A DNA stretch of 64,000 bases from Escherichia coli (GTDB lineage Bacteria > Pseudomonadota > Gammaproteobacteria > Enterobacterales > Enterobacteriaceae): NCBI RefSeq assembly GCF_030384885.1, contig NZ_CP128613.1, one strand, 5' to 3'. The notes beneath the pieces were generated by a model. That model was not told where the DNA came from and did not search any database. It saw only the letters and a program-made list of their open reading frames with translations. The translations under genes were made by a program, and so were the position numbers. Positions 26,037 to 43,262 of this stretch are shown one piece after another (the stretch's first letter is position 1; each line of letters opens with the position of its first letter).

Positions 26037-26112
26037 GATATGGGGTTTGGACGTTGTTAATGAGCAGGACAATCATGACCGCCAACGACTGGATTCTGCC
26101 TTGGTTTATGTT

Positions 26113-26126
26113 GGTGCGCATAATGT
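26113..26126. other. Left prophage-chromosome junction (dif-derived XerC arm fused to phage sequence)
   Basis: GGTGCGCATAATGT core followed by phage-derived CAACGCGTTATGTTGAAAAGG; sequence to the left differs from that left of the other two core copies, so it is chromosomal. Confidence 0.7.
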
Positions 26127-26210
26127 CAACGCGTTATGTTGAAAAGGCCGCTGCGAAAATCGAATCCCGCAGCGGCCTCTTTAGCATAACGTCATTGTGC
26201 GAACCAATAG

Positions 26211-27140
26211 CTACTTTTTCGTATAACTCTCTTCGCATTTAGCCAAAAACAGCAGATTAGTAGCGGTTAAATGAAGGGTATAACTCGCTAAATACTCAGG
26301 AACTTTTGTTATTTCTGCCCCTTGTCCATGTCCACCTTCTTTATTTCGAATGGTTGGAATACCACTCTCAAGTAGAATTCTTATTGAAGAAAATTGATTC
26401 TGGAGGTATTCAGGTACTAAATTATTTGCCAAACAACTGTTAATTAGTTTTTTAGCTGTGTCAGTATCATTAAATTGCCAAGAATGTTTTTTATGTATGG
26501 CTTTCATTAGACTTTCAAAAGATTTGAGGCAATCATTTAAACATTCTTTATATCGCTGATGTCTATAATGCTCATGGGCGGATAAAAACTCATCGTTTGC
26601 TCCGTTATAACTCTTGTTCTTACCAAGAATCTGAAGCGTAGGCTTTACAACATCAGAATGAATGAATTGTGAGTCAACTTTAACCAACTCTCCTGACTCA
26701 AATTGATATCCAAGACCTGCTTCTTTAAACCTGATATTAAGTTCTTCAATAGCATCATCAGGACTTTGCTTTACTAACCCTCTGAATTTCCACTCATTTG
26801 ATCTTATATACCCGTCTATCAGTTTGAAACATATCTCAATGATATCCAAGCATTTTTCATGATCTCTCTCAGCTAGGAAATAGTCAAAAATTGCCCCGAA
26901 ATTCGATTCAGGATACTGTTTGAGAGAGAATACACCATATTCCTTACACAGCGTTTTATGAACGAGTCTGTAAAGCTTACTTGCTTCCGTTTCATAGTCA
27001 CTATCTTCACCGATAGTATCTCTTACAATATGAACAACCTGAACACGAAATGCATTTGGTATATTCGTGTATTGGTAAACATCAGCTACTTCACCTCTTA
27101 ATTTTTTTTGTCTTTTTGAAAATAATTCGAATATAGCCAA
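26211..27140 (-). CDS. Prophage cargo: putative HEPN-domain (Abi_C/AbiJ-like) abortive-infection protein
   Basis: 309-aa ORF with a C-terminal R-x5-H-G motif (IRNKEGGHGQG) of the kind seen in HEPN/Abi_C RNase domains. Apparent TTG start with RBS GAGGA 7 nt upstream. Last gene of the leftward operon. Family assignment is from motif recall only. Confidence 0.5.
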   Translation of the reverse strand: MAIFELFSKRQKKLRGEVADVYQYTNIPNAFRVQVVHIVRDTIGEDSDYETEASKLYRLVHKTLCKEYGVFSLKQYPESNFGAIFDYFLAERDHEKCLDIIEICFKLIDGYIRSNEWKFRGLVKQSPDDAIEELNIRFKEAGLGYQFESGELVKVDSQFIHSDVVKPTLQILGKNKSYNGANDEFLSAHEHYRHQRYKECLNDCLKSFESLMKAIHKKHSWQFNDTDTAKKLINSCLANNLVPEYLQNQFSSIRILLESGIPTIRNKEGGHGQGAEITKVPEYLASYTLHLTATNLLFLAKCEESYTKK

Positions 27141-27223
27141 TTTATAATCCTCAAAGATATGCCATTAATATGTCTGAGTTGATGAAAATCACACCGCTTT
27201 TACAGTCGTTTTCCACGGTGGAG

Positions 27224-27646
27224 TTACCAGTAATATGAGTTTCTTCTGTGCCACCAATAAAGAAGTCCGTATCCAATGATAAGAATTCCGAAAAACATCA
27301 ACGACATTCCCCAGCCAGTTCCGTACCACGAAACCATATCATCGAAAACTAACCCACCCATTTCACGAACTCCGGCTGCTTCCTTAAGAATTGGTTTGAA
27401 TACCGGAATCAGAAGGGCGATCGCAAGTGGAGCACCCCAGCGAACAAGACCAGTTTCCATTTTGATCCCGAAAAAGATCCCCGCACCGACAACAAGCAAC
27501 CAGACTATCAGGCCAGGCGCAGTTTCTAGTGCTGTTTGCCATTCAACATCGAAAGTTTTCATTAGCCAGGCAACAACTGCCAGACAGAAAGCAAATACGC
27601 CTACAACAACCAGTTCAACGCCGCTTGTTTCGTTATTTCTACTCAT
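27224..27646 (-). CDS. Prophage cargo: small integral membrane protein (about 4 TM helices)
   Basis: Track ORF 27224-27793 trimmed to the internal ATG at 27646 (MSRNNETSGVELVVVGVFAF...) with RBS AAGGAT, which removes the overlap with the upstream gene. Four hydrophobic segments; function unknown. Confidence 0.55.
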   Translation of the reverse strand: MSRNNETSGVELVVVGVFAFCLAVVAWLMKTFDVEWQTALETAPGLIVWLLVVGAGIFFGIKMETGLVRWGAPLAIALLIPVFKPILKEAAGVREMGGLVFDDMVSWYGTGWGMSLMFFGILIIGYGLLYWWHRRNSYYW

Positions 27647-27734
27647 CCTTTTGATCCTTTGTTGCTGTTCAAAATCCGCACAATAAAGAACGTGCAGTGT
27701 AGGTAATACTGCACGTTTGTACCATTCGTGGTAC

Positions 27735-27917
27735 TTAATCCTTTTGTTTGGCAGACATGAGATCTTCTGCTGCATCTTTAGAGTAGTTATCAATCAGATA
27801 ACCTAAAATCTCTGTCCATGTAATTGTTTTTCCTAGTTTTACACTGGCATTTATAGCCAGTCGTTCTAGTTTCATTTTTCTTTCTTCCGTCACGTTATAA
27901 GTCGTGCGCTTTGCCAT
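27735..27917 (-). CDS. Small putative DNA-binding regulator (candidate phage repressor)
   Basis: 60-aa ORF divergently transcribed from gII, the position occupied by repressors in CTX-type phages; basic N-terminus (MAKRTTYNVTEERKMKLERLAI). Fold not verified. Confidence 0.4.
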   Translation of the reverse strand: MAKRTTYNVTEERKMKLERLAINASVKLGKTITWTEILGYLIDNYSKDAAEDLMSAKQKD

Positions 27918-27964
27918 TTTTTACGCTCGTTCAATGCAATATTTGAAGTGAGTATACATGCTCA

Positions 27965-28045
27965 TGAACTCATATCATCCAAGCCTCTTGAACTCACTAG
28001 CTCACTGGTGTAATGTTTAAACACTAATGAACTACTGAACTCATG
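27965..28045. promoter_or_regulatory. Divergent promoter/operator region with iterated TGAACTCA motifs
   Basis: TGAACTCA at 27965-27972, 27989-27996 and 28038-28045, plus the variant TGAACTAC at 28027-28034, between the regulator gene and gII. Confidence 0.5.
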
Positions 28046-28086
28046 TGTTAGTAAGTCGTCATTTTTGTAATTTTGAGGATTTATTC

Positions 28087-29139
28087 GTGATCGATTGGCT
28101 TACCGGGATTTTCCCTTGCACACACAAACCGCTTCCGGCGGGGAGTGTTGTCAGCGTTGATGCTGACGGTGCAATTGAGTGGGAAACCGTTAAGCGACTG
28201 ACTGTTCGCGGTTCGCATGAAGCAACGATGAAAGTACGATCGATAGGATCTAATGGCGAAGGTAAAGCGACACATTTGTACATTGATGGTAATCCTTCCA
28301 AGTTTCTGCAGGGGCATTCTGTTGTTGGGTCGGATGATATACAAGGGCTCATGTTGACGGTCTATGCCAGGATTTTATCCTTATTGAATATTCCTCATGA
28401 TTTAGCGGCTTATAAAGCCGTTATGGCAGGTCAGTATAAAATTTCACGTATTGACATTAATTACATGTATTCATTATCTACGCTGGAAAATGTCAGATCA
28501 TGGCTTTATGCCGCCGAATTTAAAGCTAAAACACGCCATGGTCGCGCATGTGGGAAAGGCGGTACAGTTTATTTAGGTAAAAACTCCCGTCGATGGAGTC
28601 TGAAATTTTATTCAAAATATGATGAACACGTTTCTGGTAAAAAAGGGCACCAGATAGCCGAAGAGTTTGTACGAGCCGGGTTACTGGACTGGACGAAAGA
28701 TAAATTACGTATTGAATTAACATTAAGAACAACTGAGCTTATTGATTTAAATTTAACGCTTGGCGCTAACTGGAATATGAAAACACCACGTCAATTATTC
28801 TCTGAATATGTAGGGAGAATAGAAATGAATCAGAATGCTATTTTAAGTGATGAAAAAATAACGAAACTGCCAAGAAAAATACAGTCAACTTATTTACTTT
28901 GGAAACAAGGGGCTAACATGAAAGAAATGTTACCTCATAACACTTTTTATCGCCATAGAAGAGAATTGCTTTCGTTCGGTATCGATATTAATTTCTATTG
29001 TGATTCACCAGACTCTAATAACGTTGTTCCGCTAATAAGAACGCTGGAAGCCAAGCCAGCGGAAATCCCCTTATGGATTTATGAGAAAGGTTTTATTTTC
29101 GATTACAACCGTATTTCGCACGCCAGTAGCTGGCATTAA
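28087..29139 (+). CDS. Replication initiation protein (gII-like rolling-circle nickase)
   Basis: Track ORF 28045-29139 (GTG). Preferred start is GTG 28087 with RBS GAGGA 7 nt upstream, giving N-terminus MIDWLTGIFPC... comparable to M13 pII MIDMLVLRLPF...; C-terminal NNVVPLIRT resembles pII NNVVPLVRF. Confidence 0.75.
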   Translation: MIDWLTGIFPCTHKPLPAGSVVSVDADGAIEWETVKRLTVRGSHEATMKVRSIGSNGEGKATHLYIDGNPSKFLQGHSVVGSDDIQGLMLTVYARILSLLNIPHDLAAYKAVMAGQYKISRIDINYMYSLSTLENVRSWLYAAEFKAKTRHGRACGKGGTVYLGKNSRRWSLKFYSKYDEHVSGKKGHQIAEEFVRAGLLDWTKDKLRIELTLRTTELIDLNLTLGANWNMKTPRQLFSEYVGRIEMNQNAILSDEKITKLPRKIQSTYLLWKQGANMKEMLPHNTFYRHRRELLSFGIDINFYCDSPDSNNVVPLIRTLEAKPAEIPLWIYEKGFIFDYNRISHASSWH

Positions 29140-29150
29140 AGGAAAGTAAT

Positions 29151-29468
29151 ATGTCTAATTATGGTCTTTTCGTTAAGGGTAAAATGTTGGGAGCCCGCCA
29201 ACGTAATAAAGTTAATGGTCAGGGCTATTATAATGAAATTGGTATTGGCCTTGAAATACCTGATGGTTTTGGTGGTACAAAGCAGGATCAAATTATTATT
29301 CGAGTTTCTCAGGCTCTCGTTAACGCAGGTCTAATGAACCAGGCGAATGCTTTCATTGGGAAATTAGTTCAAATTCCTGTCTATGTCCGTGCGTGGTCAA
29401 TGGAGGGTAGGGAAGGTGTAACTTATAATGTTTCTTCCGATGGTGGCATCGCAGAGATCAAAGGTTAA
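29151..29468 (+). CDS. ssDNA-binding protein (gV-like)
   Basis: 105-aa ORF immediately after gII with RBS AGGAAAG; position and size fit the inovirus ssDNA-binding protein. Confidence 0.65.
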   Translation: MSNYGLFVKGKMLGARQRNKVNGQGYYNEIGIGLEIPDGFGGTKQDQIIIRVSQALVNAGLMNQANAFIGKLVQIPVYVRAWSMEGREGVTYNVSSDGGIAEIKG

Positions 29469-29470
29469 AT

Positions 29471-29557
29471 ATGGACGATGTTATTCAAATTTTGATAGCG
29501 TCTGGCATCGTTATTTCTTTTGGCCTCGGCGCGATTACTGCGGGGGTCTTTCGTTAA
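29471..29557 (+). CDS. Minor coat protein (gVII-like), 28 aa
   Basis: MDDVIQILIASGIVISFGLGAITAGVFR resembles M13 g7p (MEQVADFDTIYQAMIQISVVLCFALGIIAGGQR). Below the ORF-track size cut-off; found by hand. Confidence 0.65.
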   Translation: MDDVIQILIASGIVISFGLGAITAGVFR

Positions 29558-29652
29558 TGTATATCGTTTATTTCTTCGGGGCTTATACCTTTGGTTTTGC
29601 CCTTTTCTATGCGGTCGGTTCATTTAAATCATTTTCTGACCGATTAATGTAA
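29557..29652 (+). CDS. Minor coat protein (gIX-like), 31 aa
   Basis: MYIVYFFGAYTFGFALFYAVGSFKSFSDRLM; start overlaps the gVII stop (TAATG) as in Ff phages; hydrophobic like M13 g9p. Confidence 0.6.
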   Translation: MYIVYFFGAYTFGFALFYAVGSFKSFSDRLM

Positions 29653-29671
29653 CCTTAATGGAGTTATTCCT

Positions 29672-29914
29672 ATGAAAATTCTGTCTACTGTTAAATATAA
29701 AGTTGCTCTGGCTTCAACTGCGCTTTTTATTTCTGCAAGTTCTTTTGCGGCTGAAGGCGCTACAGGTGGTACTGATTATGCAGGCCAGGCAATGGATGCT
29801 TTGTTGACTCAGGCAAATGATCTCATTGGTAAAGTATGGCCTGTTGTTGTGGCTGTGGTTGGCGCTGGGCTTGCCATTCGTATTTTCAAAAAATTCTCTT
29901 CAAAAGCGGTTTGA
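29672..29914 (+). CDS. Major coat protein (gVIII-like)
   Basis: 80-aa ORF with signal peptide ending SFAAEG and C-terminus [12 protein letters not shown], close to M13 g8p (...SFAAEG... IKLFKKFTSKAS). Confidence 0.9.
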
Positions 29915-29960
29915 ATTTCACTCAGGGGCACTCGTTGCCCCTTTATTAAAGCGGGTTACT

Positions 29961-31211
29961 ATGAAAAGGAAAATATTAATTCTTTCCGCTGTCCTCATTT
30001 CTCCTTTTTCACATGCTGAGTCATGGGAAAGCATTACTAAATCCACTTATCAAAGTTCTGCCTATGCTGAAAGTAAGCAAATAACCAATCAGGATGGCTC
30101 TAAGATAACGGTTTACTATATTGATGCTGCTATGCAGGCCTCCGCTTGTCAGGGTGCTAAATCCAGTGCTCAGAGTGTATTTACTCGGATTAAACCAACT
30201 TATGAGGGTATCTGGCCTGATTCTGAATTCCGTCTTGTTTTTACTGGCGATTGTACTTACAGCGATTCACCAGGGCAGAAGGATAAATATTGGTCTTTAA
30301 CGGCTTATATTGTTGGTAATATTCAGCGTTCTGTTCCTGATGAAAAACCTACTGACCCGACACCAGAAGAAATTTGTGAAGCGAAGCCGCCAGAAGAAGG
30401 TGTATTTAATAATGTTGATTCATATGATGGTGGTCGCTATATCTACTATAACGGCTGTGAATATGAGGCTACTGGTGTCATTGTTTGTCAGGGTGATGGT
30501 ACTGTTTGCGCTGCAACATGGAAGCCTACAGGTGCTGTAGCTGACCCCTCTGATAAACCCTCAACCCCCCAAAATGGTGGTGGTGAGTCTGGCGGTGGTG
30601 AGTCCGGCGGTGGTGAGTCCGGTGGTGGTGAGTCTGGCGGTGGTGAGTCCGGTGGCGGTAGTTCTGGCGGTGGCTCTAGTGGTTCCAGTCTTTCTAAAGG
30701 TGATATTCAGTCTGCGATCGAAGGTGCTTCACCCAAAATAGCCAGCGATATTCATGATAAATTAACGGAGAAAGACACTTCATCAGATGATAAAAAAAAT
30801 GCCGATGAACAAACCAGGAATAATATAAATCGTCTTGACGATTCCATTAACAATCTTACGCGGGGGGCTGGCCGTTTTGCTGACCCTTCAGGTGGTGATT
30901 CTCGTTATGGAAAGGGCGACTCTGAATTAGATGGCGCTTCTACTTTAGCTGATTCTGAATTGGGAATTGAAAAGGATTCTCACGGTGCTTTATGGGAAGC
31001 ATTTTTAAATAAAGGTGCTATGCTGCCTAATTTACCCAATGGTAACGGCTGCTCTGATTTTATTATTTTTCCCGGAGAGGTTTATCAGATTGATATTGGT
31101 TGCGATAAATTACTGACTATTAAAGATGTTCTTTCATGGGTTTTTTATTGCCTTACGTTCTGGTATGTCTTTACTTCTTTAACTTCATTGCTTCGCAAAG
31201 GGGGTGAGTGA
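29961..31211 (+). CDS. Adsorption protein (gIII-like) with Gly-rich linker
   Basis: Track ORF 29817-31211 trimmed to ATG 29961 ([19 protein letters not shown] signal peptide). GGGES x5 linker and C-terminal anchor (IDIGCDKLL...[17 protein letters not shown]) resemble M13 g3p. Confidence 0.85.
30575..30690 (+). repeat. Tandem 15-bp coding repeats (GGGES)n in the gIII linker
   Basis: Repeated ggtggtgagtc(c/t)ggc units read directly. Confidence 0.85.
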
Positions 31212-31552
31212 TGCCTTTATTATTAGGTATTCCTGCATTGTTGCGTTTTCTTATTGGTCTTGTTCCTTTGTTTATTGGCTATGTGGCGAGTTTTTTAGCT
31301 CGACTTGCTACCAGAACAGGATTAATTGCCTTTGCATTGGTCGCATTAATTACAACAACTGTTACGCTTTTAATGCAGTACCTTGCTGAGGTCATGTATA
31401 ACGGTTTACCTGCTGATTTCTCCCATTTAATGGCGTCTGTATTGCCTGACCATTTTCAGGCGTGTGTTAACGTTATTATGGTTACTCGTATCAGTGTTTT
31501 TGTTTTCGATTTAAAACAAAAATTTCTTGATTATGCAAACAGGGTGATTTAA
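31211..31552 (+). CDS. Minor coat protein (gVI-like)
   Basis: [24 protein letters not shown]... resembles M13 g6p MPVLLGIPLLLRFLGFLLVTLFGY...; ATG overlaps the gIII stop (TGATG). Confidence 0.85.
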   Translation: MPLLLGIPALLRFLIGLVPLFIGYVASFLARLATRTGLIAFALVALITTTVTLLMQYLAEVMYNGLPADFSHLMASVLPDHFQACVNVIMVTRISVFVFDLKQKFLDYANRVI

Positions 31553-32647
31553 ATGGCGGTTTATGTAGTAACAGGCAAATTAGGCTCAGGCAAGACACTT
31601 GTTAGTGTTTCCAGAATACAGGAAAGACTTGCTAAGGGTTGTCCTGTTGCCACTAATCTTGATCTTAAATTGCATAATATGCCTATGGTTGGGCGTTATG
31701 CGAAAAAAACGCGCGTTATTCGCATTCCTGACAAACCTTCATTAAATGATTTACTTGCTATTGGTACTGGGAATACATCTTACGATGAATCCCGTAATGG
31801 CCTCCTTGTACTTGATGAATGTGGTACTTGGTTTAATTCCCGCTCATGGGGTGATAAAGACAGGCAACCTGTTATTGACTGGTTTTTACATGCCAGAAAA
31901 TTAGGCTGGGATATTATATTTTTGATTCAGGATATTTCGATAATGGATAAGCAAGCTCGTCTGGCGCTTGCTGAGCATGTTGTTTATTGTCGCCGTTCAG
32001 ATAAATTAAACATTCCTTTTGTTGGCTCCATTATGAATTTGGTTTCAGGGGCGAGATTTTCTTTACCAAAGGTACACTTTGGCATTGTCAAATATGGTGA
32101 TAATGTTAATTCAATCACTGTTGATAAATGGATATATACAGGAAAATCTCTTTATTCTGCTTACAATACCAAACAAGCGTTCACAGATAATTATCCTCAT
32201 GGCGCATTTTCGCTTTTGCCACCATTTATCACGCACGGTCAATTTTCTGTTCACAGAGGATTTAATTATTATATGCGCCTCACTAAAATTTATTTTCGCA
32301 AATCGAACCGTCTTATATTAATGCTTTCTTTTTTGGCGCTGGGGCTTGCGTTTGGTTTCTGGCTCCAGTCTGGAAAGAATGTTGATGAAATCTCAGCTAT
32401 TAAATCTGCTTATGCTGAACAGGCGAGGGCGGTAACGCCTGATTCGTCCAGTGACTTACCCCGACTTTCTATTAATTCTTTTTCACAACTTGGCTTTGAC
32501 GTTTCCGTTACGTTTGTTGATGCAAAAGGTATGAAATATCAGTATTTTGATTTGATTAAAGATGGTTATTCCGTTGATATTAAAGATGCCTGTCGTGTTG
32601 TTATTAGAAAAGGCCGTTATTTACAGACTGTTACCTGTCAGGAGTAA
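31553..32647 (+). CDS. Assembly ATPase (gI-like; Zot family)
   Basis: MAVYVVTGKLGSGKTLVSV... resembles M13 g1p MAVYFVTGKLGSGKTLVSV...; Walker A GKLGSGKT; C-terminal TM segment. Confidence 0.9.
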   Translation: MAVYVVTGKLGSGKTLVSVSRIQERLAKGCPVATNLDLKLHNMPMVGRYAKKTRVIRIPDKPSLNDLLAIGTGNTSYDESRNGLLVLDECGTWFNSRSWGDKDRQPVIDWFLHARKLGWDIIFLIQDISIMDKQARLALAEHVVYCRRSDKLNIPFVGSIMNLVSGARFSLPKVHFGIVKYGDNVNSITVDKWIYTGKSLYSAYNTKQAFTDNYPHGAFSLLPPFITHGQFSVHRGFNYYMRLTKIYFRKSNRLILMLSFLALGLAFGFWLQSGKNVDEISAIKSAYAEQARAVTPDSSSDLPRLSINSFSQLGFDVSVTFVDAKGMKYQYFDLIKDGYSVDIKDACRVVIRKGRYLQTVTCQE

Positions 32648-32654
32648 TATTATT

Positions 32655-33920
32655 ATGCGCTCTGTTATTGTTGCTTTTTTATTTGCCTGTTCATTCTGCG
32701 TTTCTGCTGAAACTGTTAATTTAAATAATTCATCTGTTCGCTCATTTGTTCAGTGGTATTCTTCAAAAACTGGCAAGCCTGTTATTGTTAATCCTGATAT
32801 TAAAGGAAACGTAACCGTATTTAATGCTGATGTTAATCCAGCAAATATTGATGATTTCTTTAAGTCTGTTCTGAATGCTAACGGTTTTGTCATGCTTTCT
32901 GGCAATCCTGCGGTAGTCTCTTTGCCGTCTAAATTACCTTCACAGATGGTTTCGGATTCCGATGATTCTGATAACCAGTCTTATGATACTTTTCCTTCTG
33001 AGCCATCTTACCAGCCAGTACCTGTGGCGCTTACGGTCAGAAATTTTAAGCTGACAAAAGTTAGATCGTCCGATGTTCAGCAACTGATTAAAATTTATCT
33101 TGATTCTAATGGTGGTGGTAATGTCGTGGATTATCCAGGCAATAACTCGCTGATTGTTTCTGCGCCTGACGAGCTGCTGCCGGTTCTGTCCGATTTTATC
33201 AATTCTGTGGATGTTGCCCGCGATCAGGTTCTCATTCAGTCGCTGATGTTTGAAACCAGCTTGTCTGATGGCGTTGATTTATCGTTTGCGGCAGGTTCTG
33301 CATCCGGTCATAAGGTTGCGGGGGGCTTTAATACTTCTGCACTGGGTAGCGCTCTTTCTACGGCGGGCGGTTCTTTTGGTATTTTTGATGGTAACGTGTT
33401 GGCGCTGTCTCTGCGTGCTGTCCAGAGTAATTCACGCTCTAAGGTGATTTCAACGCCGCGTATTCTTACTCAGTCTGGTCAGACTGGTTACATTTCCGTA
33501 GGTAAGAATGTGCCGTTTATCACCGGAAAGGTAACGGGCGAATCTGCCGGGGTAAATAATCCGTTTCAGACTATCGAGCGTCATGATGTTGGCGTTTCTC
33601 TCAAGGTAACGCCTGTTGTCATGGGTAACGGGCAACTAGTTCTGACTATCGACACTCGCGCTGATTCAATCAGCAATGATGATCAGGCATCCGATATTAT
33701 TACTAATCAGCGCCAGATTCAGACGACAGTCCAGATTAAGGATGGTCAGACGTTGTTATTGGGAGGGCTTATCGATTCATCGTTCAGCAATGCCGAGCGT
33801 TCAGTTCCAGTTATAAGTAAAATTCCTCTTATAGGCTGGATTTTCAGTAGCAAGGCAGACAGCAATGAACAGCGTATTATGTATATTTTGCTTACAGCAC
33901 ATATCATTCGTCCACTTTGA
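32655..33920 (+). CDS. Outer-membrane secretin (gIV-like)
   Basis: Track ORF 32562-33920 trimmed to ATG 32655 (MRSVIVAFLFACSFCVSA signal peptide). Secretin C-domain (GQTLLLGGLIDSSFSNAERSVPVISKIPLIGWIFSS) resembles M13 g4p. Confidence 0.9.
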   Translation: MRSVIVAFLFACSFCVSAETVNLNNSSVRSFVQWYSSKTGKPVIVNPDIKGNVTVFNADVNPANIDDFFKSVLNANGFVMLSGNPAVVSLPSKLPSQMVSDSDDSDNQSYDTFPSEPSYQPVPVALTVRNFKLTKVRSSDVQQLIKIYLDSNGGGNVVDYPGNNSLIVSAPDELLPVLSDFINSVDVARDQVLIQSLMFETSLSDGVDLSFAAGSASGHKVAGGFNTSALGSALSTAGGSFGIFDGNVLALSLRAVQSNSRSKVISTPRILTQSGQTGYISVGKNVPFITGKVTGESAGVNNPFQTIERHDVGVSLKVTPVVMGNGQLVLTIDTRADSISNDDQASDIITNQRQIQTTVQIKDGQTLLLGGLIDSSFSNAERSVPVISKIPLIGWIFSSKADSNEQRIMYILLTAHIIRPL

Positions 33921-33962
33921 TGGATAGCGGGTAGGTGCGTGAGCCCTGCTCGCTATCCATCA
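33918..33962 (+). other. Strong stem-loop after gIV (candidate packaging signal, origin element or terminator)
   Basis: Perfect 12-bp inverted repeat TGATGGATAGCG / CGCTATCCATCA around a 21-nt loop, with no trailing T-run. Confidence 0.5.
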
Positions 33963-33989
33963 AATGGACATTATTGATTGGGGTAACTA

Positions 33990-34298
33990 ATGGATTCTTA
34001 TGGGATTTTATCTGCTCTGGCAGAACGAACGATTACAGCGGAAGAAGCAAAAACAATGACACTTGCAGCCAGAAGTTCTTCGGCTCAGGTAAATGAAGCA
34101 TCACTTGCTCTGTTACTGATTGATAATACTCTGGATGCGATCAAAGCAGCTGCCAGTGAAGGGAAAGGATACACTTTACTTCCTTCTTATGAGATTTCTG
34201 TAAAAGCCATTGATTTAGCAGAAGAATTTTTAAGGAAACAATGCGGCTATGTTATTGATAACCAGAATGGCGTAAGGACGGTCTATTGGTTTATATGA
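33990..34298 (+). CDS. Prophage cargo: hypothetical 102-aa protein
   Basis: ORF after gIV, where Ff phages have only the non-coding intergenic region; no recognisable motif. Confidence 0.45.
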   Translation: MDSYGILSALAERTITAEEAKTMTLAARSSSAQVNEASLALLLIDNTLDAIKAAASEGKGYTLLPSYEISVKAIDLAEEFLRKQCGYVIDNQNGVRTVYWFI

Positions 34299-34415
34299 TA
34301 ACCCCGGACAATGACAAAACTTGCTTTTGTTAGTGTCAGGGGTTGGCCAAGCCGAACAATTCTGTTTTTTTAGCGTTATTGCTGATTCGGCGCGGCAGCA
34401 TTACGAGGAGATAAA

Positions 34416-34649
34416 ATGCAATTTTTCACATCCAGCGATACTGTAATGTTATGTGCGAAGACCTGCGATCGCTGTGGTCGCCATGCGAAGACGGTGGTAG
34501 ATGACATTGAGTTCAATGAGTTTCTGTCTGTTAATCACTTAGCTGGATACGGTTCAATTTTTGGTGACAGTAATCGCTTAAAACTGGATTTATGCCAACA
34601 TTGCCTGAAAGACGTCCTGGGCCAGTGGATTACGGTCTGTGACCAATGA
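34416..34649 (+). CDS. Prophage cargo: small zinc-ribbon protein (CxxC...CxxC)
   Basis: 77-aa ORF with CDRC ... CQHC cysteine pairs; RBS GAGGAG upstream. Confidence 0.5.
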   Translation: MQFFTSSDTVMLCAKTCDRCGRHAKTVVDDIEFNEFLSVNHLAGYGSIFGDSNRLKLDLCQHCLKDVLGQWITVCDQ

Positions 34650-34687
34650 CGGCACCGGTAACGCCAGTTCCCGCCATCCTTACCATT

Positions 34688-34701
34688 GGTGCGCATAATG
34701 T
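34688..34701. other. Inter-copy junction (reconstituted phage attP-like site)
   Basis: GGTGCGCATAATGT core flanked by phage sequence on both sides (...CCATCCTTACCATT | core | CAACGCGTTATGTTGAAAAGG). Confidence 0.7.
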
Positions 34702-34785
34702 CAACGCGTTATGTTGAAAAGGCCGCTGCGAAAATCGAATCCCGCAGCGGCCTCTTTAGCATAACGTCATTGTGCGAACCAATAG

Positions 34786-35715
34786 CTACTTTTTCGTATA
34801 ACTCTCTTCGCATTTAGCCAAAAACAGCAGATTAGTAGCGGTTAAATGAAGGGTATAACTCGCTAAATACTCAGGAACTTTTGTTATTTCTGCCCCTTGT
34901 CCATGTCCACCTTCTTTATTTCGAATGGTTGGAATACCACTCTCAAGTAGAATTCTTATTGAAGAAAATTGATTCTGGAGGTATTCAGGTACTAAATTAT
35001 TTGCCAAACAACTGTTAATTAGTTTTTTAGCTGTGTCAGTATCATTAAATTGCCAAGAATGTTTTTTATGTATGGCTTTCATTAGACTTTCAAAAGATTT
35101 GAGGCAATCATTTAAACATTCTTTATATCGCTGATGTCTATAATGCTCATGGGCGGATAAAAACTCATCGTTTGCTCCGTTATAACTCTTGTTCTTACCA
35201 AGAATCTGAAGCGTAGGCTTTACAACATCAGAATGAATGAATTGTGAGTCAACTTTAACCAACTCTCCTGACTCAAATTGATATCCAAGACCTGCTTCTT
35301 TAAACCTGATATTAAGTTCTTCAATAGCATCATCAGGACTTTGCTTTACTAACCCTCTGAATTTCCACTCATTTGATCTTATATACCCGTCTATCAGTTT
35401 GAAACATATCTCAATGATATCCAAGCATTTTTCATGATCTCTCTCAGCTAGGAAATAGTCAAAAATTGCCCCGAAATTCGATTCAGGATACTGTTTGAGA
35501 GAGAATACACCATATTCCTTACACAGCGTTTTATGAACGAGTCTGTAAAGCTTACTTGCTTCCGTTTCATAGTCACTATCTTCACCGATAGTATCTCTTA
35601 CAATATGAACAACCTGAACACGAAATGCATTTGGTATATTCGTGTATTGGTAAACATCAGCTACTTCACCTCTTAATTTTTTTTGTCTTTTTGAAAATAA
35701 TTCGAATATAGCCAA
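34786..35715 (-). CDS. Copy 2: putative HEPN/Abi_C-like protein
   Basis: Identical translation to 26211-27140 (offset +8575). Confidence 0.5.
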   Translation of the reverse strand: MAIFELFSKRQKKLRGEVADVYQYTNIPNAFRVQVVHIVRDTIGEDSDYETEASKLYRLVHKTLCKEYGVFSLKQYPESNFGAIFDYFLAERDHEKCLDIIEICFKLIDGYIRSNEWKFRGLVKQSPDDAIEELNIRFKEAGLGYQFESGELVKVDSQFIHSDVVKPTLQILGKNKSYNGANDEFLSAHEHYRHQRYKECLNDCLKSFESLMKAIHKKHSWQFNDTDTAKKLINSCLANNLVPEYLQNQFSSIRILLESGIPTIRNKEGGHGQGAEITKVPEYLASYTLHLTATNLLFLAKCEESYTKK

Positions 35716-35798
35716 TTTATAATCCTCAAAGATATGCCATTAATATGTCTGAGTTGATGAAAATCACACCGCTTTTACAGTCGTTTTCCACGGTGGAG

Positions 35799-36221
35799 TT
35801 ACCAGTAATATGAGTTTCTTCTGTGCCACCAATAAAGAAGTCCGTATCCAATGATAAGAATTCCGAAAAACATCAACGACATTCCCCAGCCAGTTCCGTA
35901 CCACGAAACCATATCATCGAAAACTAACCCACCCATTTCACGAACTCCGGCTGCTTCCTTAAGAATTGGTTTGAATACCGGAATCAGAAGGGCGATCGCA
36001 AGTGGAGCACCCCAGCGAACAAGACCAGTTTCCATTTTGATCCCGAAAAAGATCCCCGCACCGACAACAAGCAACCAGACTATCAGGCCAGGCGCAGTTT
36101 CTAGTGCTGTTTGCCATTCAACATCGAAAGTTTTCATTAGCCAGGCAACAACTGCCAGACAGAAAGCAAATACGCCTACAACAACCAGTTCAACGCCGCT
36201 TGTTTCGTTATTTCTACTCAT
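35799..36221 (-). CDS. Copy 2: small integral membrane protein
   Basis: Identical to 27224-27646 (offset +8575). Confidence 0.55.
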   Translation of the reverse strand: MSRNNETSGVELVVVGVFAFCLAVVAWLMKTFDVEWQTALETAPGLIVWLLVVGAGIFFGIKMETGLVRWGAPLAIALLIPVFKPILKEAAGVREMGGLVFDDMVSWYGTGWGMSLMFFGILIIGYGLLYWWHRRNSYYW

Positions 36222-36309
36222 CCTTTTGATCCTTTGTTGCTGTTCAAAATCCGCACAATAAAGAACGTGCAGTGTAGGTAATACTGCACGTTTGTACCAT
36301 TCGTGGTAC

Positions 36310-36492
36310 TTAATCCTTTTGTTTGGCAGACATGAGATCTTCTGCTGCATCTTTAGAGTAGTTATCAATCAGATAACCTAAAATCTCTGTCCATGTAATT
36401 GTTTTTCCTAGTTTTACACTGGCATTTATAGCCAGTCGTTCTAGTTTCATTTTTCTTTCTTCCGTCACGTTATAAGTCGTGCGCTTTGCCAT
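36310..36492 (-). CDS. Copy 2: small putative DNA-binding regulator
   Basis: Identical to 27735-27917 (offset +8575). Confidence 0.4.
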   Translation of the reverse strand: MAKRTTYNVTEERKMKLERLAINASVKLGKTITWTEILGYLIDNYSKDAAEDLMSAKQKD

Positions 36493-36539
36493 TTTTTACG
36501 CTCGTTCAATGCAATATTTGAAGTGAGTATACATGCTCA

Positions 36540-36620
36540 TGAACTCATATCATCCAAGCCTCTTGAACTCACTAGCTCACTGGTGTAATGTTTAAACACT
36601 AATGAACTACTGAACTCATG
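36540..36620. promoter_or_regulatory. Copy 2: TGAACTCA iteron/operator region
   Basis: Identical to 27965-28045 (offset +8575). Confidence 0.5.
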
Positions 36621-36661
36621 TGTTAGTAAGTCGTCATTTTTGTAATTTTGAGGATTTATTC

Positions 36662-37714
36662 GTGATCGATTGGCTTACCGGGATTTTCCCTTGCACACAC
36701 AAACCGCTTCCGGCGGGGAGTGTTGTCAGCGTTGATGCTGACGGTGCAATTGAGTGGGAAACCGTTAAGCGACTGACTGTTCGCGGTTCGCATGAAGCAA
36801 CGATGAAAGTACGATCGATAGGATCTAATGGCGAAGGTAAAGCGACACATTTGTACATTGATGGTAATCCTTCCAAGTTTCTGCAGGGGCATTCTGTTGT
36901 TGGGTCGGATGATATACAAGGGCTCATGTTGACGGTCTATGCCAGGATTTTATCCTTATTGAATATTCCTCATGATTTAGCGGCTTATAAAGCCGTTATG
37001 GCAGGTCAGTATAAAATTTCACGTATTGACATTAATTACATGTATTCATTATCTACGCTGGAAAATGTCAGATCATGGCTTTATGCCGCCGAATTTAAAG
37101 CTAAAACACGCCATGGTCGCGCATGTGGGAAAGGCGGTACAGTTTATTTAGGTAAAAACTCCCGTCGATGGAGTCTGAAATTTTATTCAAAATATGATGA
37201 ACACGTTTCTGGTAAAAAAGGGCACCAGATAGCCGAAGAGTTTGTACGAGCCGGGTTACTGGACTGGACGAAAGATAAATTACGTATTGAATTAACATTA
37301 AGAACAACTGAGCTTATTGATTTAAATTTAACGCTTGGCGCTAACTGGAATATGAAAACACCACGTCAATTATTCTCTGAATATGTAGGGAGAATAGAAA
37401 TGAATCAGAATGCTATTTTAAGTGATGAAAAAATAACGAAACTGCCAAGAAAAATACAGTCAACTTATTTACTTTGGAAACAAGGGGCTAACATGAAAGA
37501 AATGTTACCTCATAACACTTTTTATCGCCATAGAAGAGAATTGCTTTCGTTCGGTATCGATATTAATTTCTATTGTGATTCACCAGACTCTAATAACGTT
37601 GTTCCGCTAATAAGAACGCTGGAAGCCAAGCCAGCGGAAATCCCCTTATGGATTTATGAGAAAGGTTTTATTTTCGATTACAACCGTATTTCGCACGCCA
37701 GTAGCTGGCATTAA
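36662..37714 (+). CDS. Copy 2: replication initiation protein (gII-like)
   Basis: Identical to 28087-29139 (offset +8575). Confidence 0.75.
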   Translation: MIDWLTGIFPCTHKPLPAGSVVSVDADGAIEWETVKRLTVRGSHEATMKVRSIGSNGEGKATHLYIDGNPSKFLQGHSVVGSDDIQGLMLTVYARILSLLNIPHDLAAYKAVMAGQYKISRIDINYMYSLSTLENVRSWLYAAEFKAKTRHGRACGKGGTVYLGKNSRRWSLKFYSKYDEHVSGKKGHQIAEEFVRAGLLDWTKDKLRIELTLRTTELIDLNLTLGANWNMKTPRQLFSEYVGRIEMNQNAILSDEKITKLPRKIQSTYLLWKQGANMKEMLPHNTFYRHRRELLSFGIDINFYCDSPDSNNVVPLIRTLEAKPAEIPLWIYEKGFIFDYNRISHASSWH

Positions 37715-37725
37715 AGGAAAGTAAT

Positions 37726-38043
37726 ATGTCTAATTATGGTCTTTTCGTTAAGGGTAAAATGTTGGGAGCCCGCCAACGTAATAAAGTTAATGGTCAGGGC
37801 TATTATAATGAAATTGGTATTGGCCTTGAAATACCTGATGGTTTTGGTGGTACAAAGCAGGATCAAATTATTATTCGAGTTTCTCAGGCTCTCGTTAACG
37901 CAGGTCTAATGAACCAGGCGAATGCTTTCATTGGGAAATTAGTTCAAATTCCTGTCTATGTCCGTGCGTGGTCAATGGAGGGTAGGGAAGGTGTAACTTA
38001 TAATGTTTCTTCCGATGGTGGCATCGCAGAGATCAAAGGTTAA
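37726..38043 (+). CDS. Copy 2: ssDNA-binding protein (gV-like)
   Basis: Identical to 29151-29468 (offset +8575). Confidence 0.65.
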   Translation: MSNYGLFVKGKMLGARQRNKVNGQGYYNEIGIGLEIPDGFGGTKQDQIIIRVSQALVNAGLMNQANAFIGKLVQIPVYVRAWSMEGREGVTYNVSSDGGIAEIKG

Positions 38044-38045
38044 AT

Positions 38046-38132
38046 ATGGACGATGTTATTCAAATTTTGATAGCGTCTGGCATCGTTATTTCTTTTGGCC
38101 TCGGCGCGATTACTGCGGGGGTCTTTCGTTAA
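38046..38132 (+). CDS. Copy 2: gVII-like minor coat protein
   Basis: Identical to 29471-29557 (offset +8575). Confidence 0.65.
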   Translation: MDDVIQILIASGIVISFGLGAITAGVFR

Positions 38133-38227
38133 TGTATATCGTTTATTTCTTCGGGGCTTATACCTTTGGTTTTGCCCTTTTCTATGCGGTCGGTTCATTT
38201 AAATCATTTTCTGACCGATTAATGTAA
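38132..38227 (+). CDS. Copy 2: gIX-like minor coat protein
   Basis: Identical to 29557-29652 (offset +8575). Confidence 0.6.
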   Translation: MYIVYFFGAYTFGFALFYAVGSFKSFSDRLM

Positions 38228-38246
38228 CCTTAATGGAGTTATTCCT

Positions 38247-38489
38247 ATGAAAATTCTGTCTACTGTTAAATATAAAGTTGCTCTGGCTTCAACTGCGCTT
38301 TTTATTTCTGCAAGTTCTTTTGCGGCTGAAGGCGCTACAGGTGGTACTGATTATGCAGGCCAGGCAATGGATGCTTTGTTGACTCAGGCAAATGATCTCA
38401 TTGGTAAAGTATGGCCTGTTGTTGTGGCTGTGGTTGGCGCTGGGCTTGCCATTCGTATTTTCAAAAAATTCTCTTCAAAAGCGGTTTGA
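38247..38489 (+). CDS. Copy 2: major coat protein (gVIII-like)
   Basis: Identical to 29672-29914 (offset +8575). Confidence 0.9.
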
Positions 38490-38535
38490 ATTTCACTCAG
38501 GGGCACTCGTTGCCCCTTTATTAAAGCGGGTTACT

Positions 38536-39786
38536 ATGAAAAGGAAAATATTAATTCTTTCCGCTGTCCTCATTTCTCCTTTTTCACATGCTGAGTCATG
38601 GGAAAGCATTACTAAATCCACTTATCAAAGTTCTGCCTATGCTGAAAGTAAGCAAATAACCAATCAGGATGGCTCTAAGATAACGGTTTACTATATTGAT
38701 GCTGCTATGCAGGCCTCCGCTTGTCAGGGTGCTAAATCCAGTGCTCAGAGTGTATTTACTCGGATTAAACCAACTTATGAGGGTATCTGGCCTGATTCTG
38801 AATTCCGTCTTGTTTTTACTGGCGATTGTACTTACAGCGATTCACCAGGGCAGAAGGATAAATATTGGTCTTTAACGGCTTATATTGTTGGTAATATTCA
38901 GCGTTCTGTTCCTGATGAAAAACCTACTGACCCGACACCAGAAGAAATTTGTGAAGCGAAGCCGCCAGAAGAAGGTGTATTTAATAATGTTGATTCATAT
39001 GATGGTGGTCGCTATATCTACTATAACGGCTGTGAATATGAGGCTACTGGTGTCATTGTTTGTCAGGGTGATGGTACTGTTTGCGCTGCAACATGGAAGC
39101 CTACAGGTGCTGTAGCTGACCCCTCTGATAAACCCTCAACCCCCCAAAATGGTGGTGGTGAGTCTGGCGGTGGTGAGTCCGGCGGTGGTGAGTCCGGTGG
39201 TGGTGAGTCTGGCGGTGGTGAGTCCGGTGGCGGTAGTTCTGGCGGTGGCTCTAGTGGTTCCAGTCTTTCTAAAGGTGATATTCAGTCTGCGATCGAAGGT
39301 GCTTCACCCAAAATAGCCAGCGATATTCATGATAAATTAACGGAGAAAGACACTTCATCAGATGATAAAAAAAATGCCGATGAACAAACCAGGAATAATA
39401 TAAATCGTCTTGACGATTCCATTAACAATCTTACGCGGGGGGCTGGCCGTTTTGCTGACCCTTCAGGTGGTGATTCTCGTTATGGAAAGGGCGACTCTGA
39501 ATTAGATGGCGCTTCTACTTTAGCTGATTCTGAATTGGGAATTGAAAAGGATTCTCACGGTGCTTTATGGGAAGCATTTTTAAATAAAGGTGCTATGCTG
39601 CCTAATTTACCCAATGGTAACGGCTGCTCTGATTTTATTATTTTTCCCGGAGAGGTTTATCAGATTGATATTGGTTGCGATAAATTACTGACTATTAAAG
39701 ATGTTCTTTCATGGGTTTTTTATTGCCTTACGTTCTGGTATGTCTTTACTTCTTTAACTTCATTGCTTCGCAAAGGGGGTGAGTGA
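38536..39786 (+). CDS. Copy 2: adsorption protein (gIII-like)
   Basis: Identical to 29961-31211 (offset +8575). Confidence 0.85.
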
Positions 39787-40127
39787 TGCCTTTATTATTA
39801 GGTATTCCTGCATTGTTGCGTTTTCTTATTGGTCTTGTTCCTTTGTTTATTGGCTATGTGGCGAGTTTTTTAGCTCGACTTGCTACCAGAACAGGATTAA
39901 TTGCCTTTGCATTGGTCGCATTAATTACAACAACTGTTACGCTTTTAATGCAGTACCTTGCTGAGGTCATGTATAACGGTTTACCTGCTGATTTCTCCCA
40001 TTTAATGGCGTCTGTATTGCCTGACCATTTTCAGGCGTGTGTTAACGTTATTATGGTTACTCGTATCAGTGTTTTTGTTTTCGATTTAAAACAAAAATTT
40101 CTTGATTATGCAAACAGGGTGATTTAA
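39786..40127 (+). CDS. Copy 2: gVI-like minor coat protein
   Basis: Identical to 31211-31552 (offset +8575). Confidence 0.85.
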   Translation: MPLLLGIPALLRFLIGLVPLFIGYVASFLARLATRTGLIAFALVALITTTVTLLMQYLAEVMYNGLPADFSHLMASVLPDHFQACVNVIMVTRISVFVFDLKQKFLDYANRVI

Positions 40128-41222
40128 ATGGCGGTTTATGTAGTAACAGGCAAATTAGGCTCAGGCAAGACACTTGTTAGTGTTTCCAGAATACAGGAAA
40201 GACTTGCTAAGGGTTGTCCTGTTGCCACTAATCTTGATCTTAAATTGCATAATATGCCTATGGTTGGGCGTTATGCGAAAAAAACGCGCGTTATTCGCAT
40301 TCCTGACAAACCTTCATTAAATGATTTACTTGCTATTGGTACTGGGAATACATCTTACGATGAATCCCGTAATGGCCTCCTTGTACTTGATGAATGTGGT
40401 ACTTGGTTTAATTCCCGCTCATGGGGTGATAAAGACAGGCAACCTGTTATTGACTGGTTTTTACATGCCAGAAAATTAGGCTGGGATATTATATTTTTGA
40501 TTCAGGATATTTCGATAATGGATAAGCAAGCTCGTCTGGCGCTTGCTGAGCATGTTGTTTATTGTCGCCGTTCAGATAAATTAAACATTCCTTTTGTTGG
40601 CTCCATTATGAATTTGGTTTCAGGGGCGAGATTTTCTTTACCAAAGGTACACTTTGGCATTGTCAAATATGGTGATAATGTTAATTCAATCACTGTTGAT
40701 AAATGGATATATACAGGAAAATCTCTTTATTCTGCTTACAATACCAAACAAGCGTTCACAGATAATTATCCTCATGGCGCATTTTCGCTTTTGCCACCAT
40801 TTATCACGCACGGTCAATTTTCTGTTCACAGAGGATTTAATTATTATATGCGCCTCACTAAAATTTATTTTCGCAAATCGAACCGTCTTATATTAATGCT
40901 TTCTTTTTTGGCGCTGGGGCTTGCGTTTGGTTTCTGGCTCCAGTCTGGAAAGAATGTTGATGAAATCTCAGCTATTAAATCTGCTTATGCTGAACAGGCG
41001 AGGGCGGTAACGCCTGATTCGTCCAGTGACTTACCCCGACTTTCTATTAATTCTTTTTCACAACTTGGCTTTGACGTTTCCGTTACGTTTGTTGATGCAA
41101 AAGGTATGAAATATCAGTATTTTGATTTGATTAAAGATGGTTATTCCGTTGATATTAAAGATGCCTGTCGTGTTGTTATTAGAAAAGGCCGTTATTTACA
41201 GACTGTTACCTGTCAGGAGTAA
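40128..41222 (+). CDS. Copy 2: assembly ATPase (gI/Zot-like)
   Basis: Identical to 31553-32647 (offset +8575). Confidence 0.9.
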   Translation: MAVYVVTGKLGSGKTLVSVSRIQERLAKGCPVATNLDLKLHNMPMVGRYAKKTRVIRIPDKPSLNDLLAIGTGNTSYDESRNGLLVLDECGTWFNSRSWGDKDRQPVIDWFLHARKLGWDIIFLIQDISIMDKQARLALAEHVVYCRRSDKLNIPFVGSIMNLVSGARFSLPKVHFGIVKYGDNVNSITVDKWIYTGKSLYSAYNTKQAFTDNYPHGAFSLLPPFITHGQFSVHRGFNYYMRLTKIYFRKSNRLILMLSFLALGLAFGFWLQSGKNVDEISAIKSAYAEQARAVTPDSSSDLPRLSINSFSQLGFDVSVTFVDAKGMKYQYFDLIKDGYSVDIKDACRVVIRKGRYLQTVTCQE

Positions 41223-41229
41223 TATTATT

Positions 41230-42495: not shown

Positions 42496-42537
42496 TGGAT
42501 AGCGGGTAGGTGCGTGAGCCCTGCTCGCTATCCATCA
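42493..42537 (+). other. Copy 2: stem-loop after gIV
   Basis: Identical to 33918-33962 (offset +8575). Confidence 0.5.
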
Positions 42538-42564
42538 AATGGACATTATTGATTGGGGTAACTA

Positions 42565-42873
42565 ATGGATTCTTATGGGATTTTATCTGCTCTGGCAGAA
42601 CGAACGATTACAGCGGAAGAAGCAAAAACAATGACACTTGCAGCCAGAAGTTCTTCGGCTCAGGTAAATGAAGCATCACTTGCTCTGTTACTGATTGATA
42701 ATACTCTGGATGCGATCAAAGCAGCTGCCAGTGAAGGGAAAGGATACACTTTACTTCCTTCTTATGAGATTTCTGTAAAAGCCATTGATTTAGCAGAAGA
42801 ATTTTTAAGGAAACAATGCGGCTATGTTATTGATAACCAGAATGGCGTAAGGACGGTCTATTGGTTTATATGA
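42565..42873 (+). CDS. Copy 2: hypothetical 102-aa cargo protein
   Basis: Identical to 33990-34298 (offset +8575). Confidence 0.45.
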   Translation: MDSYGILSALAERTITAEEAKTMTLAARSSSAQVNEASLALLLIDNTLDAIKAAASEGKGYTLLPSYEISVKAIDLAEEFLRKQCGYVIDNQNGVRTVYWFI

Positions 42874-42990
42874 TAACCCCGGACAATGACAAAACTTGCT
42901 TTTGTTAGTGTCAGGGGTTGGCCAAGCCGAACAATTCTGTTTTTTTAGCGTTATTGCTGATTCGGCGCGGCAGCATTACGAGGAGATAAA

Positions 42991-43224
42991 ATGCAATTTT
43001 TCACATCCAGCGATACTGTAATGTTATGTGCGAAGACCTGCGATCGCTGTGGTCGCCATGCGAAGACGGTGGTAGATGACATTGAGTTCAATGAGTTTCT
43101 GTCTGTTAATCACTTAGCTGGATACGGTTCAATTTTTGGTGACAGTAATCGCTTAAAACTGGATTTATGCCAACATTGCCTGAAAGACGTCCTGGGCCAG
43201 TGGATTACGGTCTGTGACCAATGA
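42991..43224 (+). CDS. Copy 2: zinc-ribbon cargo protein
   Basis: Identical to 34416-34649 (offset +8575). Confidence 0.5.
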   Translation: MQFFTSSDTVMLCAKTCDRCGRHAKTVVDDIEFNEFLSVNHLAGYGSIFGDSNRLKLDLCQHCLKDVLGQWITVCDQ

Positions 43225-43262
43225 CGGCACCGGTAACGCCAGTTCCCGCCATCCTTACCATT

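Follow-up and report, generated by a model that had tools for sequence, protein, structure and literature searches.

A predicted ribbon-helix-helix regulator and its putative 8-bp operator boxes in the divergent control region of a UPphi-type filamentous prophage of Escherichia coli

Introduction

A short repeated motif lies between two divergently oriented genes of a filamentous prophage in Escherichia coli, and the locus raises the question of which protein reads it. The window, a stretch of 64,000 nucleotides from contig NZ_CP128613.1 (assembly GCF_030384885.1), contains this prophage. On one side of a 169-bp intergenic region is the gene for the replication protein Rep (gene II), and on the other side, on the minus strand, an open reading frame (ORF) encodes a protein of 60 amino acids (aa). 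An earlier reading of the letters (hereafter the sequence-only reading) described the repeats as "repressor operators or Rep iterons", assigned a GTG start to the Rep gene, and regarded the whole as a lysogeny/replication switch. The analysis described here suggests that the 169-bp region is probably a divergent promoter/operator region, in which the boxes are bound by the 60-aa protein, a predicted ribbon-helix-helix (RHH) regulator that controls Rep.

Results

Repeat boxes in the intergenic region

The octamer TGAACTCA is found exactly on the plus strand at 27965-27972, 27989-27996, and 28036-28043, and a variant with two mismatches, TGAACTAC, abuts the third exact copy at 28028-28035. These four sites span 79 bp between the 60-aa ORF and the Rep ORF, in agreement with the sequence-only reading, which had placed three exact copies and one variant in about 80 bp. 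The copies were identified correctly, but their number was underestimated, since alignment with relatives gives seven box positions in three clusters, O1, O2, and O3 (Table 1). The box unit is the octamer TGA(A/G)(C/T)TCA, which is one step off the perfect palindrome TGAGCTCA. In relatives, O2 is the 16-bp palindrome TGAACTCATGAGTTCA, and in all of them a constant 24-25 bp separates its start from the O1 box. The O3 columns in the Salmonella relative read TGAGCTAG TGAGTTCA TGTGTTTA. The orientation of one of these columns should be noted. The box is TGAACTCA in the window and TGAGTTCA in Salmonella, and the TGA..TCA frame is kept though the orientation is flipped. Such free orientation fits recognition by a symmetric dimer and does not fit a hairpin.

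The window contains nine exact copies of TGAACTCA against 2.1 expected, and none of 100 shuffles reaches nine. Six of the nine are the cluster in the control region and its exact duplicate at +8575, and the other three, at 23039, 34508, and 43083, are single copies in line with chance (about two per window). When the intergenic region is shuffled with its dinucleotide composition kept, any octamer occurs three times or more in 75 of 50,000 shuffles (p ~0.0015). Elsewhere in the 64 kb, an octamer is repeated to this extent only in the Gly/Ser coding repeat of g3p and in a repeat at about 46.2 kb. The boxes are also better conserved than their surroundings. Mean identity to the window in seven relatives is 0.75 for O1, 0.81 for O2, and 0.70 for O3, and 0.30-0.44 for the spacers, and among 11 UPphi-like variants, 4 of 32 positions in boxes are variable versus 51 of 137 elsewhere (Fisher p = 0.006). 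The intergenic region shows no fold as single-stranded DNA (z = 0.05), no match in Rfam, and no LexA-type CTG-N10-CAG box.

Table 1. Positions of the features of the control region and its surroundings in the window.
Feature	Position	Strand	Description
Hairpin 1	27690..27716		ACGTGCAGT-N9-ACTGCACGT, 9-bp stem; downstream of the regulator gene
Hairpin 2	27720..27735		GTACCA-TTCG-TGGTAC; adjoins hairpin 1
60-aa regulator ORF	27735..27917	minus	ribbon residues 3-10, KRTTYNVT; loop between helices A and B, G29-K-T31
Exchangeable cassette	27746..28087		regulator gene and whole intergenic region; homology breakpoints 27745/27746 and 28087/28088 (blastn)
Leftward promoter-like site (regulator gene)	27951..27978	minus	-35 ATGATA (27978-27973), 16-nt spacer, -10 TATACT (27956-27951)
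Putative operator cluster O1	27957..27972		degenerate box CATGCTCA and exact TGAACTCA (27965-27972); in the spacer of the leftward promoter-like site
Rightward promoter-like site (Rep and downstream genes)	27988..28016	plus	-35 TTGAAC (27988-27993), read by eye
Putative operator cluster O2	27989..28004		exact TGAACTCA (27989-27996) and CTAGCTCA; overlaps -35/spacer of the rightward promoter-like site
Putative operator cluster O3	28028..28051		three tandem 8-bp boxes TGAACTAC, TGAACTCA, TGTGTTAG; downstream of the predicted Rep promoter
Shine-Dalgarno sequence and start codon of Rep	28075-28079 and 28087-28089	plus	GAGGA and GTG, 7-nt spacing
Rep, gene II	28087..29139	plus	350 aa; Phage_CRI and G2P_X_C
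Second copy of regulator gene, O1-O3, both promoters, and Rep start	36310..36664		identical, all coordinates +8575

Predicted structure of the 60-aa protein

Searches of Pfam, PADLOC, and PDB sequences with the 60-aa protein give no significant match, and its PHROGs class, phrog_2503, is annotated as "unknown function". An exhaustive profile search collects a family of 86 clusters at 50% identity. The weak profile matches of this family are all to RHH proteins (ParG, RHH_3, and TTHA0139). In Pfam, ParG is matched by 6 of 58 family members (best E 0.019) and RHH_3 by one member, and in PDB profiles the matches are 5ytp (E 0.06) and ParG (E 0.19); all of them are below the threshold, and no match to a curated RHH family is significant.

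In the AlphaFold2 (AF2) model of the monomer, two helices follow a loose, unstructured N-terminus. The dimer was modeled from an alignment of 55 rows as a single chain, in which a 25-residue Gly/Ser linker connects the two copies. Each half of this model consists of a strand (residues 4-10) and two helices (residues 11-28 and 34-61), and the domain has a predicted local distance difference test score (pLDDT) of ~97, with a predicted template modeling score (pTM) of 0.76. The model shows the β-α-α topology of an RHH protein within about 45 residues, and one strand from each subunit forms a two-stranded antiparallel ribbon. The G-x-S/T/N turn (G29-K30-T31) and the alternating polar residues of the ribbon are also those of an RHH protein, and the 60-aa protein is predicted to adopt this fold. 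Four members of the family (P0076, P0086, P0119, and P0138; 129-147 aa) are natural tandem duplications, i.e. single-chain dimers, and they support the dimeric fold independently.

The residue at ribbon position 6 should be noted, since it is related to the identity of the upstream repeat, as described below. Positions 2, 4, and 6 of an RHH ribbon contact bases (PMC3413123). In the 60-aa protein (K3-R4-T5-T6-Y7-N8-V9-T10), these positions are occupied by R, T, and N. The last of them is N8. Every box-bearing locus has N at this position, and loci with different repeats have A, S, or H. This covariation suggests that the protein may bind DNA sequence-specifically through the ribbon.

Co-occurrence of the boxes with the regulator

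In all ten loci in which the regulator has a (K/R)-x-T-Y-N-(V/I) ribbon, the upstream 170 bp contain one to four exact copies of TGAACTCA or TGAGTTCA. In the six loci with TMAI, TASI, or TLHV ribbons or with helix-turn-helix regulators, neither exact nor one-mismatch boxes are found (0/6). The loci with the other ribbons (TMAI, TASI as in I2-2, and TLHV) carry other repeats, e.g. GCATGCA and GCATAAC. A search for related loci with a narrower alignment of the family returned near-identical ribbons only.

The Rep genes beside these regulators are diverse. Homologues of the regulator (37-93% identity) are located beside four types of Rep, namely the MIDW type (350 aa, Salmonella), the MFFDW type (371-381 aa), the Ff-like MIDLLKL type (404 aa), and a Rep_trans protein (375 aa). 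Conversely, Rep of UTI89 and 7CC is 86% identical to that of the window, but their intergenic regions contain no TGAACTCA even when one mismatch is allowed, and have inverted repeats of their own. The positions of the boxes are fixed relative to the start of the regulator gene (+43-50, +67-74, and +107-121) and vary relative to the Rep start. Because the boxes follow the regulator across Rep lineages and are missing beside an 86%-identical Rep, they are better read as operators of the regulator than as iterons of Rep. Thus, of the two functions that the sequence-only reading had left side by side, the operator function is well supported by the co-occurrence with the 60-aa family across four Rep lineages and by the overlap with promoter-like elements described next, and the iteron function is contradicted, since an 86%-identical Rep is free of boxes and unrelated Reps have them.

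Promoter-like sites and proposed mode of control

The leftward promoter-like site, with 9 of 12 matches in a promoter scan, is a consensus match only. Its TATACT is also present in a Salmonella locus (L018), and GAGTATACA is conserved in relatives. For the rightward site, the -10 element is either TAATGT (28011-28016, 17-nt spacer) or TGTAAT (28009-28014, 15-nt spacer). The equivalent site in one relative (L006), TTGAAC-17-TATTAT, is called by the scan, and CTCTTGAACTCA and GTGTA are conserved at this site in relatives. The location of the rightward site is likewise conserved, and the predicted start of its transcript is at about 28020-28025.

These arrangements suggest the following mode of control. 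One RHH dimer would read one near-palindromic 8-bp box via the N-terminal β-ribbon, and binding would probably be cooperative between dimers on adjacent boxes, 8 bp apart from centre to centre, as it is for MetJ on met-boxes and for ParG on ACTC boxes. Since O2 covers the rightward promoter (-35/spacer) and O3 follows it at about +5 to +30, occupation of both may keep Rep and the phage genes that follow it from being transcribed. O1, lying inside the leftward promoter, may serve in autoregulation of the regulator gene. We infer DNA binding, the repressive sign of control, cooperativity, the promoter positions, and immunity from these arrangements, and the term lysogeny/replication switch appears to be a reasonable analogy to rstR/ig-2 of CTXphi.

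Exchange of the regulatory cassette

Related phages exchange the regulator and the intergenic region together, as one unit. Blastn matches of UTI89 to the window lie only around the cassette (27202-27745 and 28088-29475), and those of 7CC lie at 27689-27745 and 28088-33419. Phages of another Rep lineage show the complementary pattern, matching the window only at 27753-28049, which corresponds to the regulator gene and all three box clusters. In about 100 E. coli genomes, UTI89 among them, the match to the query is confined to 27600-27745 (its first ~146 bp). A helix-turn-helix regulator of ~148 aa replaces the 60-aa gene in those listed or inspected, including all 25 such genomes among the matches listed, and 47 genomes carry the 60-aa regulator cassette. 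Comparison of the loci indicates that, in inoviruses, the regulator cassette and the Rep/origin module are combined independently of each other. By analogy with rstR/ig-2 of CTXphi, the cassette probably sets the specificity of superinfection immunity.

Possibly decayed forms of the regulator are also observed. In I2-2 (L002, NC_001332), an unannotated homologue of the 60-aa regulator (38% identity) is located on the minus strand at 2720-2918, within the "intergenic region". It is split by a frameshift in the record, which is either a sequencing error or a sign of a decayed gene, and an intact I2-2-like version of 65 aa (P0074) is found in metagenomes. In E. coli EC5502 (NZ_CP092647.1, match H8), the cassette query matches 15 places, and P0060 and P0069, regulator forms that are variant or frameshifted, come from the same 5,005,213-bp contig. 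This suggests very many copies in tandem, some of them decaying.

A broader reading joins three statements, and we give it slightly less than an even chance as a whole. The cassette may be a portable heteroimmunity cassette across at least four Rep lineages, one ribbon position (N8 versus A/S/H) may re-programme the 8-bp box, and the decayed copy in I2-2 may mark a regulated temperate ancestor. I2-2 is regarded as non-integrating, and as part of the same joint reading a decayed cassette copy would lie in its supposedly non-coding intergenic region.

Start codon of the Rep gene

Rep is 56% identical to pII of I2-2 and 86% identical to Rep of the CUS-like prophage in UTI89. The first in-frame ATG in its ORF is codon 48 (28228), which bears out the earlier remark that none lies near the 5' end. 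The PGAP annotation starts Rep at GTG 28087, and Pfam PF05144 (Phage_CRI) aligns Rep residues 1-231 with profile positions 1-231. In I2-2 (gII ATG 3091), UTI89, and 7CC, an ATG is located at the codon aligned with this GTG (MIDW...). UTI89 and 7CC read ATG ATC GAC TGG at this point, and nucleotide homology to them resumes at 28088, one base past the G/A difference. GTG is used at the same start in 11 IMG/VR loci, and GTG starts are common in the Rep group. These observations strongly support the GTG with its GAGGA, as proposed by the sequence-only reading, as the true start of Rep. An upstream GTG at 28045 was rejected as the start, since the codons in 28045-28086 have no homology in UTI89 and 7CC and contain the Shine-Dalgarno sequence. 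The accompanying idea that Rep translation is low and tightly controlled is not supported, because the Shine-Dalgarno sequence at this spacing is strong; moreover, a GTG start is common, and the sequence contains no sign of translational control.

Met247 of Rep (28825-29139) aligns with the annotated start of gene X in I2-2, and a pX product of ~104 aa is likely to start at Rep codon 247. PGAP does not annotate pX in the E. coli relative.

Hairpins and candidate origin

Hairpin 1 is well folded as single-stranded DNA (z = -5.0) and lies ~250 bp upstream of the first box. It is nearly identical in I2-2, UTI89, and 7CC, and is found only in loci with a MIDW-type Rep (0 of the 13 other loci searched). 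In hairpin 2, two base pairs differ between the window and UTI89 by compensatory changes. A second copy of both hairpins is located at 36265-36310. The box region adjoins neither a nick site nor a structured origin, and its repeats neither co-vary with Rep nor are specific to it. Hairpin 1 is a better candidate than the boxes for a Rep-specific (+) origin, and the replication origin is probably outside the box region. The two hairpins (27690-27735) are also candidates for a terminator, as an alternative or in addition to the origin role. If hairpin 1 is the origin, its two sites, 8575 bp apart in the tandem prophage, would delimit one genome length.

The prophage and its neighbouring genes

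Two exact tandem copies of the 8575-bp filamentous prophage occupy 26111-43276 with zero mismatches between them. The E. coli dif site, GGTGCGCATAATGTATATTATGTTAAAT, is intact at 43263-43290 after the tandem, and dif-like junctions of the copies are at 26111 and 34686. Ag43 and hipBA are located on the left side. The structural genes show 65-70% nucleotide identity to phage I2-2 (blastn). The published UPphi group is dif-integrated, tandem, and I2-2-like, and has gII/gV in common with YpfPhi (PMC7307601). Because the dif location, the tandem copies, the I2-2-like genes, and the gII/gV type all match this description, the prophage is, by its gene content and location, a UPphi-type inovirus at dif. 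A search of GenBank phage DNA with the control region gave zero matches.

Two further genes lie on the minus strand to the left of the cassette. A 309-aa cargo protein (26211-27140; second copy 34786-35715) has the domains AbiJ_NTD4 and DUF7014 as well as faint matches to HEPN/Abi_C. It also matches PDC-S32, a candidate system in PADLOC (E 4.5e-10), and is possibly anti-phage defence cargo. In another UPphi copy (L001), this position holds different ORFs. A 140-aa predicted membrane protein (27224-27646; phrog_4174, unknown function) is encoded downstream of the regulator gene and the hairpins. Its gene shows 92% nucleotide identity to that in the UTI89 prophage, despite the different regulator cassettes.

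Discussion

Several observations weigh against the proposed control of Rep by the 60-aa protein and should be set beside it. In the published description of UPphi, the reverse-strand ORFs near dif are without function, and repressors and operators are not discussed (PMC7307601). Many of the comparison loci are related by descent, and the ten loci out of ten are therefore not ten independent events. The spacing between O1 and O2 (24 bp) is in the 8-bp register, but that between O2 and O3 (39 bp) is out of it, and one continuous array of dimers is thus unlikely. The promoter scan of the window does not call the rightward site, because its -10 element is weak, and promoter-like matches are no commoner than in shuffles.

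Other readings of the boxes have also to be weighed. The 60-aa RHH protein may bind them as an activator or an architectural accessory factor, like TraY at oriT, and so promote Rep expression or origin use; we regard this as unlikely. The reading that Rep (pII) itself binds the boxes, as iterons or as an origin enhancer that starts or controls rolling-circle replication, has in its favour that they lie directly upstream of the Rep gene and that pII of Ff binds repeats beside its nick site. It is nevertheless very improbable, since the boxes are absent beside an 86%-identical Rep, stand beside three other Rep lineages including a Rep_trans protein, and lie in a region devoid of single-stranded DNA structure, hairpin 1 being the element that follows the MIDW-type Rep instead.

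The boxes may alternatively be sites of a host transcription factor or nucleoid protein to which the 60-aa protein is unrelated. RovA/SlyA is known to bind the Rep promoter of YpfPhi. RovA binds the YPO2274 promoter region of that phage (PMC4266046); furthermore, all box-bearing loci come from Enterobacterales or from unassigned metagenome or assembly contigs. However, the presence of the boxes tracks the ribbon of the adjacent protein and not the host. E. coli prophages with a helix-turn-helix regulator are free of boxes, and the repeats beside homologues with the TMAI ribbon are different ones. A LexA-like site is also missing. A host factor is improbable. The last possibility, that the repeats are a by-product of chance or composition, or form hairpins in RNA or single-stranded DNA, is scarcely credible. 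Octamers do recur by chance at low rates, and a scan flagged weak "terminator-like" hairpins from inverted boxes. However, the shuffles and the conservation of the boxes but not of the spacers contradict chance, and the switch between direct and inverted boxes in relatives destroys the hairpins, the region in the window being unfolded and without an Rfam match. A ParG-like centromere was ruled out, as the element has no ParA/ParF gene. Recognition by the 60-aa regulator, with Rep as the controlled gene, remains the reading that we prefer.

Filamentous prophages of the UPphi, CUS, and Ypf types occur widely in uropathogenic E. coli, Salmonella, Klebsiella, and Yersinia, and their control has been published as unknown or "awaiting demonstration" (PMC7307601, PMC4266046). 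By the present analysis, which is based on comparison of loci and modeling, the previously uncharacterised phage family phrog_2503 would gain a fold, a DNA box to bind, and a promoter to control. The assignment offers a cheap and direct experimental handle on prophage quiescence and mutual phage exclusion. The kind of mechanism is already well known, being a small RHH autorepressor on tandem boxes, here in an RstR-like role. The question of the Rep start codon is settled at GTG 28087.

Comparison with known systems

The closest relatives of the prophage are UPphi901, CUS-1/CUSphi, YpfPhi, and I2-2, with which it shares the form of a dif-integrated tandem inovirus and I2-2-like structural genes (PMC7307601, PMC4266046). 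The gII/gV module of the CUS/Ypf type is ~86% identical to that of the window prophage. The control regions differ. The CUS-like prophage of UTI89 has a helix-turn-helix cassette instead of the 60-aa cassette, and I2-2 has only the frameshifted regulator copy. In YpfPhi, an RstR-like regulator, YPO2273, has been suggested, whose role awaits demonstration, and the intergenic region is "believed to be involved in transcription initiation" (PMC4266046).

Among RHH proteins, MetJ binds tandem 8-bp palindromes, AGACGTCT, and the sites of ParG are ACTC tetramers in either orientation, separated by 4-bp spacers and located downstream of the -10 element (PMC3413123). The window boxes resemble both in being short and in an 8-bp period, with one dimer proposed for each, and their orientation is free as for ParG. 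The box TGA(A/G)(C/T)TCA contains ACTC and abuts its neighbour in O2 and O3. The 60-aa protein, however, has no significant sequence similarity to MetJ or ParG, lacks the S-adenosylmethionine co-repressor domain of the former, and lacks the ParF partner and the disordered N-terminal tail of the latter. In addition, the window boxes do not form one array but fall into three clusters, which are placed around two promoters. The differences from Arc and Mnt of P22 and from CopG/omega are larger. Arc, Mnt, and CopG use pseudo-symmetric operators of ~21 or 13 bp, not tandem 8-bp boxes, and helix B of the 60-aa protein (residues 34-59) is much longer.

The arrangement most similar to that in the window is rstR/ig-2/PrstA of CTXphi in Vibrio cholerae, a tandem filamentous prophage integrated at dif. 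In CTXphi, binding of the repressor to the intergenic region blocks the rstA promoter, and allele-specific repression gives type-specific immunity (PMC11509585). In both systems, a small regulator gene is divergent from the Rep gene (rstA in CTXphi) with the control region between them, and the regulator and the intergenic region vary as a unit among otherwise related phages. RstR is described as a helix-turn-helix repressor, whereas the window regulator models as an RHH protein and is not a homologue of RstR. The putative operators in the window are 8-bp near-palindromic boxes without a LexA-like box, and the cassette is exchanged across Rep lineages, not just among alleles. By this comparison, the window cassette would work like the CTXphi module, though it is not a member of it.

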